This document shows positions 7,575 to 15,516 of a stretch of DNA of 32,000 bases, in pieces. The notes below the pieces were generated by a model. It searched no databases. It saw only the letters and a list, made by a program, of their open reading frames with translations, and was not told where the DNA came from. Position 1 is the stretch's first letter. Each line of letters begins with the position of its first letter. The translations under genes were made by a program, and so were the position numbers. The DNA is from Candidatus Harpocratesius repetitus. Lineage in GTDB: Archaea > Asgardarchaeota > Lokiarchaeia > Sigyniarchaeales > Promethearchaeaceae. The DNA is taken from NCBI GenBank assembly GCA_021498095.1, contig JAIZWK010000001.1, positions 4,110,001-4,142,000 on the forward strand, read 5' to 3'.

Positions 7575-10500
7575 ATGAAGCAAAGTAATTCAAATTCTCT
7601 CCGTAATGTTGAAATCTTGGAAAATAATACCAAATACGTTGGAATTAATATTGGTGCAGTATCAGTCAATGTAGTATGGAAAGATAAGAATGGAACATAT
7701 TTCAGTAAGAAACAAGGCCATTTAGGAAATCCTCAAATGATTTTAAACGATATTTTAATTTCAAACCAACTAATTCATAATAATTCTAATTCTTATTTTG
7801 AAGTTTCAGGTACTTTTGGTGAAATTTCTGAGATTAAAGCTATTGAAAGAGGAGTCCAGCAAATTGAGCAACAAATAGATGCTGTTCTTTCTTTAGGGGG
7901 AGAAGCATTTGTCCTATATATTCTCAATAAACAAGGACATATTGTTAATATTTTATCCCAAGACAAATGTGCGGCAGGATCTGGAGAATTTTTCCTGCAA
8001 CAAATTGAACGACTTAATTTAAGCTTAGAAGAAGCTATTGATCTGGCAGAAAAAGGAAAAAAAATTCAAATCGCTTCACGTTGTTCTGTGCATTGTAAGT
8101 CAGATGTAACACATAAGCTTAATCGTGGCGAGGCTTCCATTGAAGATATCTTATTCTCTTTGATTTCGAATATGATTAACAAAGGTTTAGCAATGATCCA
8201 GCAATCGCGCGTTTCAATCAAAAATTTATTAGTAATTGGAGGGCTCACACTAAACAAAGTTGTTGTTCAACAACTTCATCAAACTTTATCAGAAATAAAT
8301 GTAATTATTCATCCATTTTCTTCTTTATTTGAAGCATATGGAACCGCTTTACTGGTACAAGACGTACCAACAAAAAGAGAACCCTCATTAAAAATTCAAC
8401 AAACTTTCACAATATTGCCTTCATTAGAAAAATACAGCCATTTAGTCAGAAGTATGCAAAATTTTCAAACAAATGATTCTACAAATATCGAAAAAATAAC
8501 CAAAATTGATCCTTTACAAGCTTATATATTAGGAATCGATGTAGGATCGACCACGACAAAAGCAGTTCTATTTCACCCGGACAACCGCCAGATTCTTGCA
8601 TCACATTATGGTAGGACAAATGGAAACCCTATTGAAGCCACCCGGAAATGCATTCAAGAAATAATTAATCAAGTAGGTTCTGTAAATATTAAATTAATTG
8701 GAGTAACAGGCTCAGGGAGGCAAATGGTGGCCGCTTATTTAGGAACTTCAGCAGTATATAACGAAATTTCAGCTCATTCAGAAGGAGCGGCTTATTTTGA
8801 TCCTGAAGTTGATACAATATTTGAAATTGGGGGTCAAGATGCAAAATACATGTTTTTAGCAAATGGAGTTCCTGTAGATTATGCCATGAATGCATCATGT
8901 TCAGCAGGGACAGGATCATTTTTAGAAGAAAGTGCGAAATGCGACTTGGGGGTAACTGTATATGATATCGGAGATGTCGCAATTAAGTCACCCCGCGCAG
9001 TTAGATTTAAAGCCGATTGTGCTGCTTTTATCAATTCTGATATTCGAACTGCTCTTCAAGAAGGTTATTCTAAACCTGAAATTATAGCTGGTTTAGTCTA
9101 TTCTATTGTAAATAATTATTTAAATAAAGTAAAAGGAACCCGTCCTATTGGTAAGAAAATATTCCTACAAGGTGGTGTTGCAAAAAATCGAGCAGTTGGA
9201 AATGCTTTTGCCCAAGTTACAGGGAGAGAAATAATTATTCCCCCATTTCCAGAATTAATGGGAGCATTTGGAATTGCTTTAATCGCACAAGCGAAATATA
9301 AAGAAGGTGAAGTATCAGCAATGCCTCCAAATACCACTTTAGAGCATATTATTGCAACTCCCTTGAAACATTTAGGTTCCTTTACATGTAAATCATGTCA
9401 AAATTACTGTCAAATCGAACGGTATGCAGTAGGAAATCGAAAATTTCCATTTGGAGGTAAATGTACTCGCTATGAACATATTTGGAGACAAACAAAATCA
9501 ATCAAAGAACAGGAAGATTTGGTGAGTTATAGAACAAACCTCATGTTTCCTGCTTCAAATACAAGAACTTCACAAGATGTTATTGATAATTCATCAACGG
9601 AAGAATTACAGAGAATAGGTATTCCACGCGCATTATTAACTCATAGTCTTTATCCCCTTTTTTCAACCTTCTTTACGGAATTAGGGTTTGAAGTTATTTT
9701 GTCAGATATTGATCCAGATTTTGCACTAATTCCCAATGCACCACTATGTTACCCAATGCAAATATTTCATGGAGCTGTAGCTGATTTAGTCAAAAAAGGA
9801 GTTCATTTCATCTTTACTCCTCATATTACAAAAATGAAGAAATCTGAAAAATGGTATAGTTCAACTTTTTGCCCGATTACTCAATCTGGTCCATATATGG
9901 TTGCACAAATCTTTGATCATGTTGAATTCTTAATACCTGAATTGGATTTTAGTGAAGGATACTTTGAAAATGACAGTATCATTAGAATGGCTGTTGAAAA
10001 ACTCCACATTGATGAAGATGTGGCGAATGCTGCCTATAATACCGCAGTACTTGCTCAAGAGATGGTTGAAAGAAAACTAAAAGAAAAAGGCCGTCAAGTT
10101 CTTAAAAATCTAATAAAATCAGGTCAAACAGGAATAATAATTGTTGGTCGAAGTTATAATGTGTATCCTAAAGAGACATCTCAAAGTATTCCTAAAAAAT
10201 TGACAAGTATGGGTGTTCAAGTTATCCCATTTGATTTTTTGGAGCCAATATCTGAATCAGATACTCCATGGTATTTCGCAAATTATGTAACTGAAGCAGT
10301 AAATTTAGTAAAGCAGCATGATAATCTCTTCTTGCTTTATATCAATAATTTCAGCTGCACTATCGATGCATTTATTCAACATTGGGTTAGATCTCAAATG
10401 GATGCTAAACCATATTTATTAATGGAACTAGATGCACACATGGCTGATGCTGGTACTCAAACCCGCATTGAAGCATTTTTAGAAATTATTAAAAATTACC

Positions 10501-11921
10501 GTCAACAGCACTATGATCCTATCTCAAACTCATTCCGAATCGCAAGAGTAGAGCAAAAAAATGGAAAGACAGTGATTATACGCACTTCTGGAGAAGAAAT
10601 AGATATTTTTGATCCCAAAGTCAAAATACATCTCTTCCCTTTTTCACCTTATCATACTGATTTATTCGAAAAGATGCTTTCAAGTTATGGATATAATGTT
10701 GAACCTACAGGAGATATCCAATTATCATATCCAGTAGAAGGTTTGAAATATTGCTCAGGAAAAGAATGTATTCCTCTTCCAATTGTACTAGGTCATATAC
10801 TCCACTTAGTTAGAAATCGTAAACCTGGAGAAGTGATTGGTTATTTTATGTTACGTGGAGGAGAACCTTGTGTAGTTTTTAGTTATGGTCAATATATCAG
10901 AGATTTTTTGGAAAAGAATCATATTTCAGATGTATTCTTTTTTGATTTTGATAAAAAAAGTAATTTTATGGGAGCAAATATCATGAGTGTGATACAATAT
11001 GCTCCAAGAATCTTGATATTAGGTGATATAATTAATGATATTCACAGCGCACTTGAAGTTGTTGGTAGACCAGGAAGTATAAATCAATTACAAGTATATT
11101 GGAAAGAATTGCTAAAAGAATTTAACTCTCTTTCTGTTCTCGATGGATTGATAGATAAATTAATAAATCAGATTACAACAATTCCAATCCAAAGTACACC
11201 TCAAGAAAAACCAATTGTTTTACTTTCTGGAGATTTCTTTGTCCGTTTCAGCCCATTTTTCTTGAAAGAATTGAAAAAAATATACAATTCACATGGAATT
11301 ATCGTAAAATCGACTGATTTATTCGAATTATTTGCATATGGTATTCCTTTTGGTAGTCTGGTAAATCCAAAAAATAGAAGCAAATACCTTAGTAAAGTTA
11401 GAGATAAATTTAAAGGAAAAGATAGAATATGGAAGAATTTCTCTGCTGGTTTTTATGCAAGCCAATTAATCTACAAATATATGGAGCAAGTAGATCACAA
11501 ACTCCGAAAGCGATTTGAAAAAACTAATTTGCTTTTTGCTCCTCCAAATGATATTATTCGAATTGTAAAAAATGCAGATACATTAATCAATCCTCAGATT
11601 TATGGAGAAGGCATTCTCACTGTAGGAAAAGGAATTGAAGTGCTTGAGGATCAAACTTATGATGGATTAATCTTAATTGGTCCACAATTTTGCCTACCTT
11701 ACCGAGCTTCACAAGCAATTCTCAAACCAATATATTATGAAAACAATTTTCCATATATGGTATTTGATGCTGAAATATCTGCCATATCTCCAAATATAAA
11801 ACGATTAATCGAAGCTAATATTGAGCAGATAAAACGACACTTTAAAATACGGCATATAAAAAATATCGATGATAAATCAAGCGCAAAGAGAAAGTTCATA
11901 TTCAAAATTCTTGGTGGTTAA
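7575..11921 (+). CDS. Large 2-hydroxyacyl-CoA dehydratase activase-type fusion: two BadF/BcrA/HgdC ASKHA ATPase domains plus DUF2229-like Fe-S domains
   Basis: Domain 1: GINIGAVS, DKCAAGSGEF, SRCSVHC. Domain 2: GIDVGSTTTK, EIGGQDAK, SCSAGTGSFLEE, DCAAF, QGGVAKN. Then CKSCQNYC...GGKC, IGIPRAL, CYP, FCP, NNFSCTID, ELDAH and GKECIP. Confidence 0.9.
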   Translation: MKQSNSNSLRNVEILENNTKYVGINIGAVSVNVVWKDKNGTYFSKKQGHLGNPQMILNDILISNQLIHNNSNSYFEVSGTFGEISEIKAIERGVQQIEQQIDAVLSLGGEAFVLYILNKQGHIVNILSQDKCAAGSGEFFLQQIERLNLSLEEAIDLAEKGKKIQIASRCSVHCKSDVTHKLNRGEASIEDILFSLISNMINKGLAMIQQSRVSIKNLLVIGGLTLNKVVVQQLHQTLSEINVIIHPFSSLFEAYGTALLVQDVPTKREPSLKIQQTFTILPSLEKYSHLVRSMQNFQTNDSTNIEKITKIDPLQAYILGIDVGSTTTKAVLFHPDNRQILASHYGRTNGNPIEATRKCIQEIINQVGSVNIKLIGVTGSGRQMVAAYLGTSAVYNEISAHSEGAAYFDPEVDTIFEIGGQDAKYMFLANGVPVDYAMNASCSAGTGSFLEESAKCDLGVTVYDIGDVAIKSPRAVRFKADCAAFINSDIRTALQEGYSKPEIIAGLVYSIVNNYLNKVKGTRPIGKKIFLQGGVAKNRAVGNAFAQVTGREIIIPPFPELMGAFGIALIAQAKYKEGEVSAMPPNTTLEHIIATPLKHLGSFTCKSCQNYCQIERYAVGNRKFPFGGKCTRYEHIWRQTKSIKEQEDLVSYRTNLMFPASNTRTSQDVIDNSSTEELQRIGIPRALLTHSLYPLFSTFFTELGFEVILSDIDPDFALIPNAPLCYPMQIFHGAVADLVKKGVHFIFTPHITKMKKSEKWYSSTFCPITQSGPYMVAQIFDHVEFLIPELDFSEGYFENDSIIRMAVEKLHIDEDVANAAYNTAVLAQEMVERKLKEKGRQVLKNLIKSGQTGIIIVGRSYNVYPKETSQSIPKKLTSMGVQVIPFDFLEPISESDTPWYFANYVTEAVNLVKQHDNLFLLYINNFSCTIDAFIQHWVRSQMDAKPYLLMELDAHMADAGTQTRIEAFLEIIKNYRQQHYDPISNSFRIARVEQKNGKTVIIRTSGEEIDIFDPKVKIHLFPFSPYHTDLFEKMLSSYGYNVEPTGDIQLSYPVEGLKYCSGKECIPLPIVLGHILHLVRNRKPGEVIGYFMLRGGEPCVVFSYGQYIRDFLEKNHISDVFFFDFDKKSNFMGANIMSVIQYAPRILILGDIINDIHSALEVVGRPGSINQLQVYWKELLKEFNSLSVLDGLIDKLINQITTIPIQSTPQEKPIVLLSGDFFVRFSPFFLKELKKIYNSHGIIVKSTDLFELFAYGIPFGSLVNPKNRSKYLSKVRDKFKGKDRIWKNFSAGFYASQLIYKYMEQVDHKLRKRFEKTNLLFAPPNDIIRIVKNADTLINPQIYGEGILTVGKGIEVLEDQTYDGLILIGPQFCLPYRASQAILKPIYYENNFPYMVFDAEISAISPNIKRLIEANIEQIKRHFKIRHIKNIDDKSSAKRKFIFKILGG

Positions 11922-13040: not shown

Positions 13041-13670
13041 TTATAAGATTTGGTTTCCCATCACGTTATAAGCTTTAATCGGCAATTCTTTGGCAAAACT
13101 TTGTTGATATTCTTCAAAATTTAGAGACCAGATCATACTGTCTTGTGGTTCTTCTTTTTCATTTAAGACTCGATCTCTTAACGTTGCTTCGTGCTTAAAA
13201 TTTAATTTTCGAGGAATTGAAGCACTTCTTATATTTCTTGGATCACAATGAATCTCAACCAAATGAAATTGATAAATTTCAAATGCAATTTTTGTAAGTG
13301 CTGCTGCAATTTCGGTAGCTATCCCTTGATTAGTGAAATCTGCATGAATCCAATATCCAATTTCGATAGAATTAGGTTCCACACGTGGATGAAGCCCTGT
13401 ACCTCCAATTAATTGATTTTCTTTTAAATTAAAGATACCAAATACAAATTCTTTATTCAGATCGAAAGATGCACGCATTTTGCGAAGACGATTAATTTTC
13501 TTTTCAATTGGTTCAGGTTCTACATGAACCCAAGGCATCCATGGTTTTAAATGCTCAAGACTTTCTGTAATTGCTTGTTCAAGTAGTGGTGCATCCTTTG
13601 GATCATAGCATCTGATAATTGTTCTAGGTGTTTCAACACGATAAATAACTTGTAATACTGGAATGTCCAT
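13041..13670 (-). CDS. GNAT N-acetyltransferase, RimJ/RimL family
   Basis: Motifs: ETPRTIIR, HLKPWMPW, EIGYWI, NQGIATE, NIRSASIPRKLNFKHEATLR. Confidence 0.9.
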   Translation of the reverse strand: MDIPVLQVIYRVETPRTIIRCYDPKDAPLLEQAITESLEHLKPWMPWVHVEPEPIEKKINRLRKMRASFDLNKEFVFGIFNLKENQLIGGTGLHPRVEPNSIEIGYWIHADFTNQGIATEIAAALTKIAFEIYQFHLVEIHCDPRNIRSASIPRKLNFKHEATLRDRVLNEKEEPQDSMIWSLNFEEYQQSFAKELPIKAYNVMGNQIL

Positions 13671-13742: not shown

Positions 13743-14057
13743 TTATCCACCAGAATGATGAGTGACCATATCAATTTCTGCTACTTCAACTGATCTTCCT
13801 TCAATTTGTTCCACATTTCGCTTTAGGTCAGTAAAAAGATTACCTTTAGAAACTTGTCTACCTTGATTAAAGAGTTGGTGTGATTCATAAAGAGTAGCCA
13901 ACTGCTTTGATTGCAGCGGTTTACCTACATTTTCTAATTCATCGATAGCTTCTGAAATGATACTATCTATTGACATATGTTCCTGGTCAATTTTGATATA
14001 GAATGGAGAATCACTCAAAGCAGTATTAATTTTTAAAATATAAGTTGAATTCTTCAT
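13743..14057 (-). CDS. Ubiquitin-like (beta-grasp) protein with a C-terminal diglycine
   Basis: Ends EIDMVTHHSGG-stop. The internal HQLFNQGRQVSKGNLFTDL parallels ubiquitin QRLIFAGKQLEDGRTLSDY. Start placed at ATG 14057 (GAAGGT upstream); 14072 is an alternative. The 14186 start in the track adds an implausible extension. Confidence 0.7.
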   Translation of the reverse strand: MKNSTYILKINTALSDSPFYIKIDQEHMSIDSIISEAIDELENVGKPLQSKQLATLYESHQLFNQGRQVSKGNLFTDLKRNVEQIEGRSVEVAEIDMVTHHSGG

Positions 14058-14427
14058 GATATTTACCTTCATATTTGAATTTTTTTGCGGTAGAATACAA
14101 AGACTCACTTCTTTTTCATACAAGAAGAGTGAATCAATGCTTCTTTTAAAAAAAAATATTTTAAAGAGATCTTTTTTACCTTTCATCGATTTGAAATTTT
14201 TAATCTAACAAAAAAGATCTAGATAAAATATATATAATTTAATTATTTAAATCTATCTCGCAAAATACATAAAATTGTTCTAAAAAAATAAAATTTCATC
14301 AATGTGAAAAAGGATTATATTTTTTCTTTGGCAAAAATCGAAACATTTTATTTTATATCAGGCAAATTTTAATTAAATAAATATGTTTTTAAATAATTTT
14401 TTAATTTATTATTAGAGTTAGAGAACA

Positions 14428-15516
14428 GTGAACGACGATAGTGATTATTTAGTAGAACGATTTACAGTTACACCTGAAGATTTCCCAGTATTAGCAAAAC
14501 TAATCGCAGAATCTTTCTTGAATGAAGAATTGACAGAAGAAATGGGAGGAACAATTCAATTTGATGAACAAACATTTAATATTATGTTCGGATCTCCAAT
14601 AATATCCCGAGATTTCTTTGTACGCACAATTTATAAACCTACAAATGAAGTTGTTGGCTTTTTAGGTGCGATACCCCGAGCAGTGAATATGAAAGGTAAA
14701 ATTTTAAATTACGCAGTTCCTTCTTGGGCAGCAGTTCATTATAAACATAGAAGAAAAGGATTAGCATTTAAAATGGGACTAAAACTACGAGAAATTGGTA
14801 TTGAAAAGAATGTAGATGGAGGATTCAGCATTCATGAACCAGAACAGCATGGAATTGATACCTCAAAAGCTGTTGCAAGAGAAACAAATTTAGAAATGAT
14901 CAAATTTGCATTAATACACCAATTTGTTGTTCGATGTTTTGATGTTACGCGTGTTGCGAGTGTTATAAAACTTAAATGGTTTGAAAAATTAGCATTTCGA
15001 TTATTTCAATCAGTTCCTAAGAACAAGAATCCTCATGTACGGAACTATCGACCATCTGATGGAGAACAAATGTTTCTTATGATGCATGATCATATCGATC
15101 GCAATGAAGTTTCATTAGTTAGAGATCATGATGATTTCTTATGGTATTTAAACCAACCGGGAGTTAACTGTGTTGTCTATGAAGATCCAGTAGGAACAAT
15201 AAAAGGATTTATTTTAGCATGGAAAATGAATTTAGCTGGTTTTGGTAATTCGATCCCATTCGGATGGCTCGATTTAGTGCATACATATCGCTTAAATACG
15301 AGAGAAACGAAAGATTTAGCAAATTACCTTTGTATAACATCGAAAGAATTAGGGTGGGCAGGATTACAAACACCTTATATTCCTTATTTTGAAGCAAAAC
15401 CGTTTAAAAAAGCGAAATTTATTTTTTATAGTAAAAAAATGTCAATTGATGTTTTTAATTTGAAGAAATTTAATATCCCTACTAATGTTTCGCATTTTTA
15501 CTTTGATTGGAGATAA
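14428..15516 (+). CDS. Tandem-GNAT acyltransferase resembling glycylpeptide N-myristoyltransferase (NMT)
   Basis: VVGFLGAIP and VHYKHRRKGLA match NMT LVGFISAIP and VHKKLRSKRVA. The second GNAT half is also collinear to the C-terminus. GTG start. Confidence 0.72.
   Translation: MNDDSDYLVERFTVTPEDFPVLAKLIAESFLNEELTEEMGGTIQFDEQTFNIMFGSPIISRDFFVRTIYKPTNEVVGFLGAIPRAVNMKGKILNYAVPSWAAVHYKHRRKGLAFKMGLKLREIGIEKNVDGGFSIHEPEQHGIDTSKAVARETNLEMIKFALIHQFVVRCFDVTRVASVIKLKWFEKLAFRLFQSVPKNKNPHVRNYRPSDGEQMFLMMHDHIDRNEVSLVRDHDDFLWYLNQPGVNCVVYEDPVGTIKGFILAWKMNLAGFGNSIPFGWLDLVHTYRLNTRETKDLANYLCITSKELGWAGLQTPYIPYFEAKPFKKAKFIFYSKKMSIDVFNLKKFNIPTNVSHFYFDWR

Follow-up and report, generated by a model that had tools for sequence, protein, structure and literature searches.

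Research on the origin of eukaryotic ubiquitin signalling draws on Asgard archaea, and attention has mostly been directed at the eukaryote-like operon for ubiquitin (Ub), E1, E2 and RING proteins. In the systems of Haloferax (SAMP/UbaA/HvJAMM1) and of Urm1/Uba4, a small GG-ended modifier stands apart from a single-domain E1 of MoeB/ThiF type, and a JAMM protein acts as the remover; to our knowledge, sampylation has no E2. In Bil systems, the BilD protein is a pseudo-dimeric IAD-AAD-CYS E1, whose Cys 417 and C-terminal zinc cysteines 491/493 imply a length of about 500 residues (PMC11601596, PMC10557695), and BilC removes one residue after the BilA glycine (PMC10557695). Bub (6E/DUF6527) systems employ a DUF6527 serine protease and oxyester chemistry, with E1 and E2 proteins that have no catalytic cysteines; the BubAB fusion of a ubiquitin-like protein (Ubl) with an E2 is cleaved by BubCD, a JAB-E1 fusion (PMC11601596). 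Here we analyzed a Ubl gene at positions 13743-14057 of a 32,000-nucleotide stretch of DNA from Candidatus Harpocratesius repetitus (hereafter the window), i.e. C1:4110001-4142000 of a 4.36 Mb genome (G000) contained in one contig (C1). The gene is a variant of the prokaryotic Ubl/E2/JAB/E1 systems, with an unusual split genomic layout and with a branch of fusions found on virus-like elements.

Homologues were compared in two alignments, A1 with 17 rows of genomic homologues and A2 with 53 rows of the wider family. The gene and its two ends were delimited as follows.

13743..14057, minus strand: Ubl gene, 104 codons plus a TAA stop (open reading frame translation, AlphaFold2 model, fold matches and homologues).
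13746..13760, minus strand: last five codons, H100-H101-S102-G103-G104, i.e. the HxGG end (translation, and the A1 and A2 alignments).
14058..14072, minus strand: start region with an alternative ATG at 14072-14070 and a Shine-Dalgarno-like stretch (sequence, database form and homologue N-termini).

The longest open frame of the locus covers positions 13743-14186 of the minus strand. When translated from the ATG at 14057, it gives a protein of 104 amino acids (aa) with the C-terminus H-H-S-G-G and a TAA codon immediately after it at 13745-13743, in agreement with a preliminary description of this DNA, made from the letters alone, which had read a protein of about 104 aa ending in HHSGG-stop with the GG already terminal. 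A start at ATG 14072 would add five residues (MKVNI), giving the 109-aa form found in the protein database. The start that yields about 104 aa is favored, because a Shine-Dalgarno-like GAAGGT is situated 7 nt upstream of ATG 14057 and because the N-termini of the homologues in A1 align with this form. Towards the nearest orthologue, non-synonymous divergence (pN) is 0.19 and synonymous divergence (pS) is 0.72, with synonymous sites saturated; since both a paralogue and orthologues exist with pN well below pS, the gene is not a chance reading frame. Adenylation and conjugation are predicted to take place at the HxGG end. Whole-genome searches with ThiF/E1, UQ_con/E2 and JAB models gave no match inside the window, as had been said of E1, E2 and JAB genes from the letters; RING domains were not searched.

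An AlphaFold2 model of the protein, made with 17 homologues, reached a predicted local distance difference test (pLDDT) score of 89 and a predicted template modelling (pTM) score of 0.79. It consists of strands 5-12 and 19-23, a helix at 30-43, an extra helix at 47-59 (PLQSKQLATLYES), strands 60-64 and 67-69, and a C-terminal hairpin, 80-85/88-99, with the turn NVEQIEGRSVE, while the last five residues were modelled at low confidence (pLDDT 51) as a flexible tail. Both the beta-beta-alpha-beta-beta pattern and the two insertions, helix and hairpin, that the preliminary description had proposed are thus present in the model. Foldseek against the PDB placed ubiquitin, NEDD8, SUMO and the Caldiarchaeum ubiquitin (6fnn) at the top, with E values of 3e-4 to 2e-3 and probability 1.00, and among the matches to Swiss-Prot models were SUMO, NEDD8, FAT10 and the cleaved Ubl domain of Sde2. 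VIA-align, run over 48,161 chains with the best 50 rows listed, returned beta-grasp folds in all 50 of these (Z 8.7-6.6), the best superimposing 75 residues at a root-mean-square deviation of 2.1. The rows listed include MoaD (Z 7.8 and 6.8), ubiquitin and SUMO (7.2-7.7), the bacterial E1-E2-Ubl complex 8tyz (7.2), and the beta-grasp domains Raf RBD, DIX and PI3K ABD. A fold other than beta-grasp had been named as a possible outcome that would speak against a Ubl; as modelled, the window protein is a real ubiquitin-fold (beta-grasp) protein. Since MoaD ties with ubiquitin and SUMO, the fold gives no nearest Ubl branch, and the proposal that the protein stands nearer to eukaryotic ubiquitin than to ThiS/MoaD/SAMP found no backing, neither in a sequence match nor in the MoaD Z of 7.8.

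At the sequence level the protein goes unrecognised. Pfam gave nothing better than E 0.02, and no Ubl family (PF00240, ThiS/MoaD PF02597 or PF09138) at E up to 1. PDB sequences searched with the single Ubl sequence and with a 53-member profile contained no Ubl; the sole matches of the profile, designed helical repeats aligned over helix 28-50, were rejected as spurious. PADLOC models did not match the Ubl, nor the E2-like and JAB proteins described below. The best score of a feature search in the ESM Atlas was 0.85, below the trusted level, and the bacterial clusters labelled 'ubiquitin-like domain' which it returned are leads only. Structure-detected Ufm1 homologues were reported in Asgard archaea in 2026 (PMC12962969). 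An identity as Ufm1/Uba5/Ufc1 was considered and rejected, as no match to PF03671 was found in the genome up to E 1 and Ufm1 was not among the top folds; the lone PF08694 (UFC1) match in the genome has an E of 0.8 and is located elsewhere.

A word-indexed homologue search returned the Ubl protein itself only. Its relatives emerged from an exhaustive HMMER search of 1.84 billion representatives, which gave a family of 55 clusters, and from six-frame searches of 13 further genomes in the same taxonomic family, 161 genomes of the class and 400 of the phylum. The Ubl was found in 10 of the 13 family genomes, in one genome of another family in the class, and in 14 of the 400 phylum genomes, but in none of the 135 sister-family genomes. 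G103, G104 and H101 are invariant in the 17 rows of A1, and in the 53 rows of A2 H60, G103 and G104 are invariant with H101 conserved in at least 90%; the preliminary description had made its reading depend on homologues that keep the terminal GG, and this is the case throughout both alignments. This HxGG family, unrecognisable to Pfam, PDB and PADLOC, appears to be new. No description of it was met in the papers that full-text keyword searches retrieved, although an earlier one may exist.

What follows the GG varies. Out of 48 motif-bearing representatives, four have no residue after it, 17 have one, three have two, one has three and two have five, while the remaining 21 carry an unrelated extension of 26-296 residues. 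The orthologue in G015, for example, has a single residue there and ends in GGM. As relatives carry 1-5 residues or unrelated extensions at this point, cleavage after the GG is probably part of the system. The window copy needs no trimming, since its stop codon follows the GG directly. The earlier statement that no processing protease is needed therefore holds for this copy, but not for the relatives with 1-5 residues or fusions, and the JAMM protein of the operon described below has its motif intact.

A second Ubl copy is found in the same genome at C1:927011-927319. It is 54% identical and ends in SHSGG-stop. Its locus, between a TFE-alpha gene and the genes for a cyclophilin and a Rio2 kinase, is kept in 7-9 genomes; that of the window copy, flanked by genes for a methyltransferase, a GNAT acetyltransferase and an NMT-like GNAT, is confined to the three genomes of this genus, and the window copies form a clade with 100/98 support in the tree. 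By synteny and tree, the window Ubl is a genus-specific duplicate of the older TFE-linked copy. With a pN of 0.19 in its lineage versus 0.09 in the TFE-linked one, i.e. about two times faster change, it is, as read from these values, under somewhat relaxed purifying selection. Within genus g6, the second Ubl copies of two genomes contain in-frame TAA stops, two in one genome (L019, G018:C231) and one in the other (L020, G017:C16), and the counterpart in G020 is intact, which suggests that the modifier gene has been repeatedly duplicated and decayed.

The genome harbors in total five ThiF-type proteins, one UQ_con E2 and four JAB matches. In three distant genomes with the Ubl (G004, G308 and G397), the genes are ordered Ubl, E2-like (about 260 aa), JAB and E1. 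The E1 proteins of these three scored 229-260 bits against the own-genome E1 at C1:432 kb, versus 20-86 bits against the other four E1-like proteins. The own-genome operon, at about 431-434 kb of C1 and 3.7 Mb distant from the window Ubl, has the same order of E2-like, JAB and E1 genes together with a fourth gene (344 aa, no Pfam match), without an adjoining Ubl, and its synteny extends over the family. RING domains were not searched, and no RING gene was noticed in it. The E2-like gene and the Ubl are found in the identical 12 of the 161 class genomes, and both are absent from the same three family genomes and from the 135 sister-family genomes. Because related genomes are not independent, this co-occurrence is a pattern and not a statistic. 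From cis-linkage and identical phyletic distribution, the operon's E2-like, JAB and E1 proteins are the probable cognate enzymes of the Ubl. The window gene had been called an orphan Ubl variant; with a family of 55 clusters, a paralogue in the same genome and this operon, it is not one, while the activation in trans that had been offered is the likely arrangement.

Two further operon structures were noted. In G397 (L044:10597-11319, plus strand) the Ubl/E2-like/JAB/E1 operon is divergent from a gene for a proteasome alpha-subunit (Pfam 4.9e-46). In G012 (L068, G012:C136:3500-11000) two E2-like paralogues in tandem, with 33% and 38% identity to the query, are situated upstream of the JAB and E1 genes; three matches to the Ubl family, one truncated, are found elsewhere in this genome.

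The E2-like protein (274 aa, C1:433634-434455, minus strand) gave no Pfam match; its C-terminal domain has the UBC fold, and about 100 aa at the N-terminus form an extra domain. Tyr188, His190, Phe192, Ile204, Cys205 and Gly207 are invariant in 13 homologues, forming a motif HPx...ICxG that resembles the active site of E2 enzymes. In its model (pLDDT 83), residues 100-263 matched only E2/UEV folds among the top 45 rows of VIA-align (Z 7.5-4.3). In-frame stops in the E2-like matches of five genomes turned out to mark the ends of these genes, beyond which the Lys-rich tail of the query had been aligned. The JAB protein (257 aa) keeps the JAMM motif E96, H149, H151, S159 and D162 in 10 out of 10 sequences. 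The operon E1 (283 aa, C1:431999-432847, minus strand) is of ThiF type, with a single ThiF domain at residues 8-245, and its invariant features are GxGxxGN, NxNRQ, two Cys pairs, and C181 in a short crossover loop. A co-fold of this E1 with the Ubl gave weak support for the pair, scoring 0.35 versus 0.00 for the best control, with runs agreeing in at least 93% of contacts and a partner pLDDT of at least 81. Among 80 solved complexes 58 attained the mark for such co-folds, as did two of 110 mismatched pairs; at 0.60 or under it was attained by only seven of the 80 and by both passing mismatches. Since E1-Ubl complexes have already been solved, resemblance to known structures may account for the pass.

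We consider the Ubl to be, with fair probability, a conjugatable modifier made in its mature form, whose enzymes are encoded elsewhere in the genome, in an archaeal system that is Bil-like but distinct. In the corresponding pathway, modelled on SAMP/UbaA, on Bil and on the eukaryotic cascades, the small single-domain E1 (283 aa) would adenylate Gly104 of the Ubl, which would then be passed as a thioester from E1 Cys181 to the E2-like protein with its invariant His190 and Cys205, and next be joined to target proteins. The JAMM metalloprotease of the operon (257 aa) would take the Ubl off its targets, and would also trim those relatives that are made with 1-5 residues or whole proteins after the GG. 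In favor of this reading are the fold and its invariant GG, linkage in an operon in other lineages, the identical distribution and the intact catalytic residues of all three enzymes.

In 21 clusters the Ubl is found in frame ahead of an unrelated extension of 26-296 aa, with the GG exactly at the junction, and wherever the DNA was readable these long forms were true in-frame fusions. Among the partners are a dUTPase (Pfam 1.3e-19), a winged helix of TrmB type and a phage-family domain (phrog_419, 5e-21), besides unknowns. The contigs that carry the fusions are made up of co-oriented, overlapping small ORFans, together with genes for DNA methyltransferases, dUTPase, ThyX and a Hel308-like helicase, and one fusion-bearing element was assembled from three samples. 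The source metagenomes of these elements include SRR26080961, ERZ27247850 and GCA_029935735.1. In the tree, 18 out of the 21 fused forms fall inside the clade of the host-family copies, the operon-linked forms being in the other clade. No capsid, terminase or other viral hallmark gene was identified on the short fusion contigs, and a scan of IMG/VR with A1 found no relative of the Ubl. As these fragments thus lack a capsid or terminase gene and IMG/VR was empty, their virus-like nature is an inference. A dUTPase-ThyX block and TFB genes have been described in wyrdviruses of Asgard archaea, a lead only, and a ubiquitin-like protein is not mentioned among the wyrdvirus genes (bioRxiv 10.1101/2021.07.29.453957). 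At L076:1803-2953 a Ubl fusion gene abuts a separate dUTPase gene, and at L035:2444-3235 the Ubl is fused to the dUTPase itself, which suggests that genes have been joined or split at the GG junction in related elements.

For these fusions, GG cleavage and perhaps conjugation are suggested to serve dealings between virus and host in these archaea. Tentatively, and with the balance tilted against it, a host lineage of Lokiarchaeia-type Asgard archaea and its infecting viruses or mobile elements might share a private Ubl currency: the host would contribute the free modifiers and the E1, E2-like and JAMM proteins, and the elements would make proteins of their own (dUTPase, transcription factors, phage-type domains) with the Ubl fused at the N-terminus, which are cleaved by the host JAMM or activated by the host E1 and E2-like proteins.

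Compared with Bil (BilABCD, 'ISG15-like', Type II), the system is alike in the order Ubl, E2, JAB, E1 in G004, G308 and G397, in a Ubl of one beta-grasp domain that ends in Gly and often bears one additional residue, in the catalytic cysteines of E1 and E2, and in a zinc site of two Cys pairs. It differs in its E1, which here has 283 aa, one ThiF domain and Cys181 in a short crossover loop, and in its E2-like protein with an HP(F) motif, an extra N-terminal domain of about 100 aa and no PADLOC sequence match. The host is also archaeal, and in this family the Ubl genes are unlinked, duplicated and placed in a housekeeping-like context. As the defining IAD-AAD-CYS E1 is absent, the system is not a member of Bil. 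Nor does it belong to Bub, since the DUF6527 protease and the lack of catalytic cysteines set Bub apart, whereas E1 Cys181 and E2-like Cys205 are invariant here. With sampylation it shares an unlinked GG-ended beta-grasp modifier, a small E1 and a JAMM peptidase; the differences are a conserved UBC-fold protein with an invariant Cys, no ThiS/MoaD sequence signal, and no sulfur-transfer partners in the neighborhood. The eukaryote-like Ub operons of Caldiarchaeum and Asgard archaea (Ub, E1, E2, RING E3 and Rpn11) follow the same Ubl/E1/E2/JAB logic in the same host phylum, but the operon E1 here is of the small type and the Ubl has no match to their Pfam models. The genome separately holds a Pfam ubiquitin (83 aa, ending in GGY), the UQ_con E2 and a large E1; a genome-wide PF00240 search matched at C1:1085331-1085522 only and not in the window Ubl, and this eukaryote-like ubiquitin is a separate system from the HxGG Ubl. 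The fusions, finally, resemble ubiquitin-fusion precursors (Ub-ribosomal protein, Sde2 and BubAB) in having an in-frame Ubl ahead of an unrelated protein, but here the partners are varied and on virus-like contigs, and cleavage is predicted only.

Several points weigh against the conjugated modifier. Sulfur carriers such as ThiS, MoaD, Urm1 and SAMP2 likewise use a C-terminal GG and an E1, and Urm1 also has a His just before its GG. The Ubl genes are unlinked from the operon in this genome and in the entire family, so that the pairing of the two rests on three distant genomes and on co-occurrence. There are two Ubl paralogues, of which one or both may use the operon; there are also four other E1-like proteins in the genome, and the co-fold covered the operon E1. 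The best E value in a Foldseek search with the E2-like model was 0.07, and as this is weak by itself, the assignment as E2 rests on the VIA-align matches, with their middling Z scores, together with the invariant motif. The Ubl might be a sulfur carrier, with Gly104 thiocarboxylated by an E1-like enzyme and the sulfur passed on to tRNA thiolation or cofactor synthesis, possibly alongside conjugation. The GG end, the beta-grasp fold with MoaD at Z 7.8 and 6.8, level with ubiquitin, and the linked small E1 of MoeB/ThiF type with zinc-binding cysteines would all suit such a role. It is nevertheless improbable, as Pfam gave no ThiS or MoaD match up to E 1, sulfur transfer has no need of the JAMM peptidase or of the E2-like protein, with its invariant Cys, that the linked operon encodes, and no MoaE, ThiG, NcsA or rhodanese gene was found in the neighborhoods read. 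Moreover, the unrelated C-terminal fusion proteins fit a processed tag rather than a carrier, and the genome has, as read by eye, a separate MoeB-like E1 beside a cysteine desulfurase-like gene. Many beta-grasp domains are never conjugated, and some of these (Raf RBD, DIX and PI3K ABD) are among the fold matches. Together with a Ubl gene unlinked from any enzyme in this genome, this would allow a small adaptor or regulatory subunit in which the GG is kept for binding and not for chemistry. Such a role is very hard to reconcile with an invariant GG at a domain boundary, followed by a stop, 1-5 residues or unrelated proteins, with the linkage to and co-occurrence with E1, E2-like and JAB genes, and with a C-terminal tail that is modelled as flexible.

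A further alternative concerns the biological role, and is compatible with the conjugation mechanism proposed above: the operon and its Ubls could, like Bil or ISG15-like defence, tag virus proteins, with the virus-borne fusions as decoys or as a hijack of the system. The gene order is identical to that of BilABCD (PMC11601596), the distribution in the phylum is patchy (14 out of 400 genomes), 18 of the 21 fused forms interleave with host-family copies in the tree, and the fused forms are surrounded by DNA methyltransferase, dUTPase, ThyX and helicase genes and packed ORFans. A role in antiviral defence or virus conflict is nonetheless unlikely, since both the operon and the TFE-linked Ubl gene keep their synteny, and are apparently vertically inherited, across five genera beside housekeeping genes. 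Neither the Ubl, the E2-like nor the JAB protein had a PADLOC match, no neighbors of a defence-island kind were seen, and both the absence of viral hallmark genes from the short contigs and the empty IMG/VR scan speak against it as well.

If the Ubl is a conjugated modifier, a group that includes cultured Asgard strains would have a second Ubl system, one that is unrecognisable by sequence. Its combination of a small SAMP-type E1, an E2-like protein and a JAMM peptidase would be intermediate between sampylation and the cascades of Bil and eukaryotes. It would also connect two gene sets that had each appeared orphan, i.e. an E2-JAB-E1 operon without a modifier and two modifier genes without enzymes.

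The Ubl gene is flanked in the window by two acetyltransferase genes.

13041..13670, minus strand: GNAT acetyltransferase (Acetyltransf_3, RimJ/RimL-like; Pfam 4.1e-22), 72 bp downstream of the Ubl gene.
14428..15516, plus strand: two-lobed GNAT of 362 aa, divergently transcribed from the Ubl gene, with a weak NMT-like N-terminal match.

Adjacency of the first of these to the Ubl is found within the genus only (L004 and L005), and the NMT-like GNAT adjoins the Ubl also in G014. The protein of the second gene matched Acetyltransf_9 at 2.4e-5 (24.8 bits, cut-off 25) and NMT at 1.4e-4 (22.3 bits, cut-off 25). As the NMT match, in the N-terminal lobe, is weak and under the Pfam cut-off, the label 'NMT-like' given to this neighbor in the preliminary description is unproven. 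The use of the Ubl with these neighboring enzymes, suggested there as well, has the synteny of a single genus in its favor, and the GNAT and NMT-like genes were for this reason rejected as functional partners. Further along the window, at 7575-11921 on the plus strand, a reading frame of 1448 aa shows, by eye, two N-terminal repeats resembling actin-fold ATPases (GINIGAVS, GIDVGSTTTKAV), and its product may be an activase-type fusion protein.

Outside the window, at G000:C1:2401316-2404813 (L029), a type II CBASS-like cluster was found with all three genes on one strand, i.e. an oligonucleotide cyclase (PADLOC 3.6e-43), a 557-aa Cap2-type E2-E1 fusion and a Cap3-type Prok-JAB; one of the five E1-like proteins of the genome thus belongs to a CBASS system.

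Lastly, the TFE-alpha gene upstream of the Ubl paralogue (L002:829-1350, plus strand, i.e. G000:C1 at about 926.3-926.9 kb; orthologues in L010, L012 and L017) has an unusual beginning. In G000 the Pfam-matched TFIIE_alpha region (frame residues 15-117) precedes any in-frame ATG, GTG or TTG, and in G014, G018 and G020 the first canonical start is situated within or past the conserved part of the alignment. At the aligned start position all four genomes have an ATT, preceded by a GAGGCGG-like stretch in G018 and G020, and translation of TFE-alpha may start at this codon.

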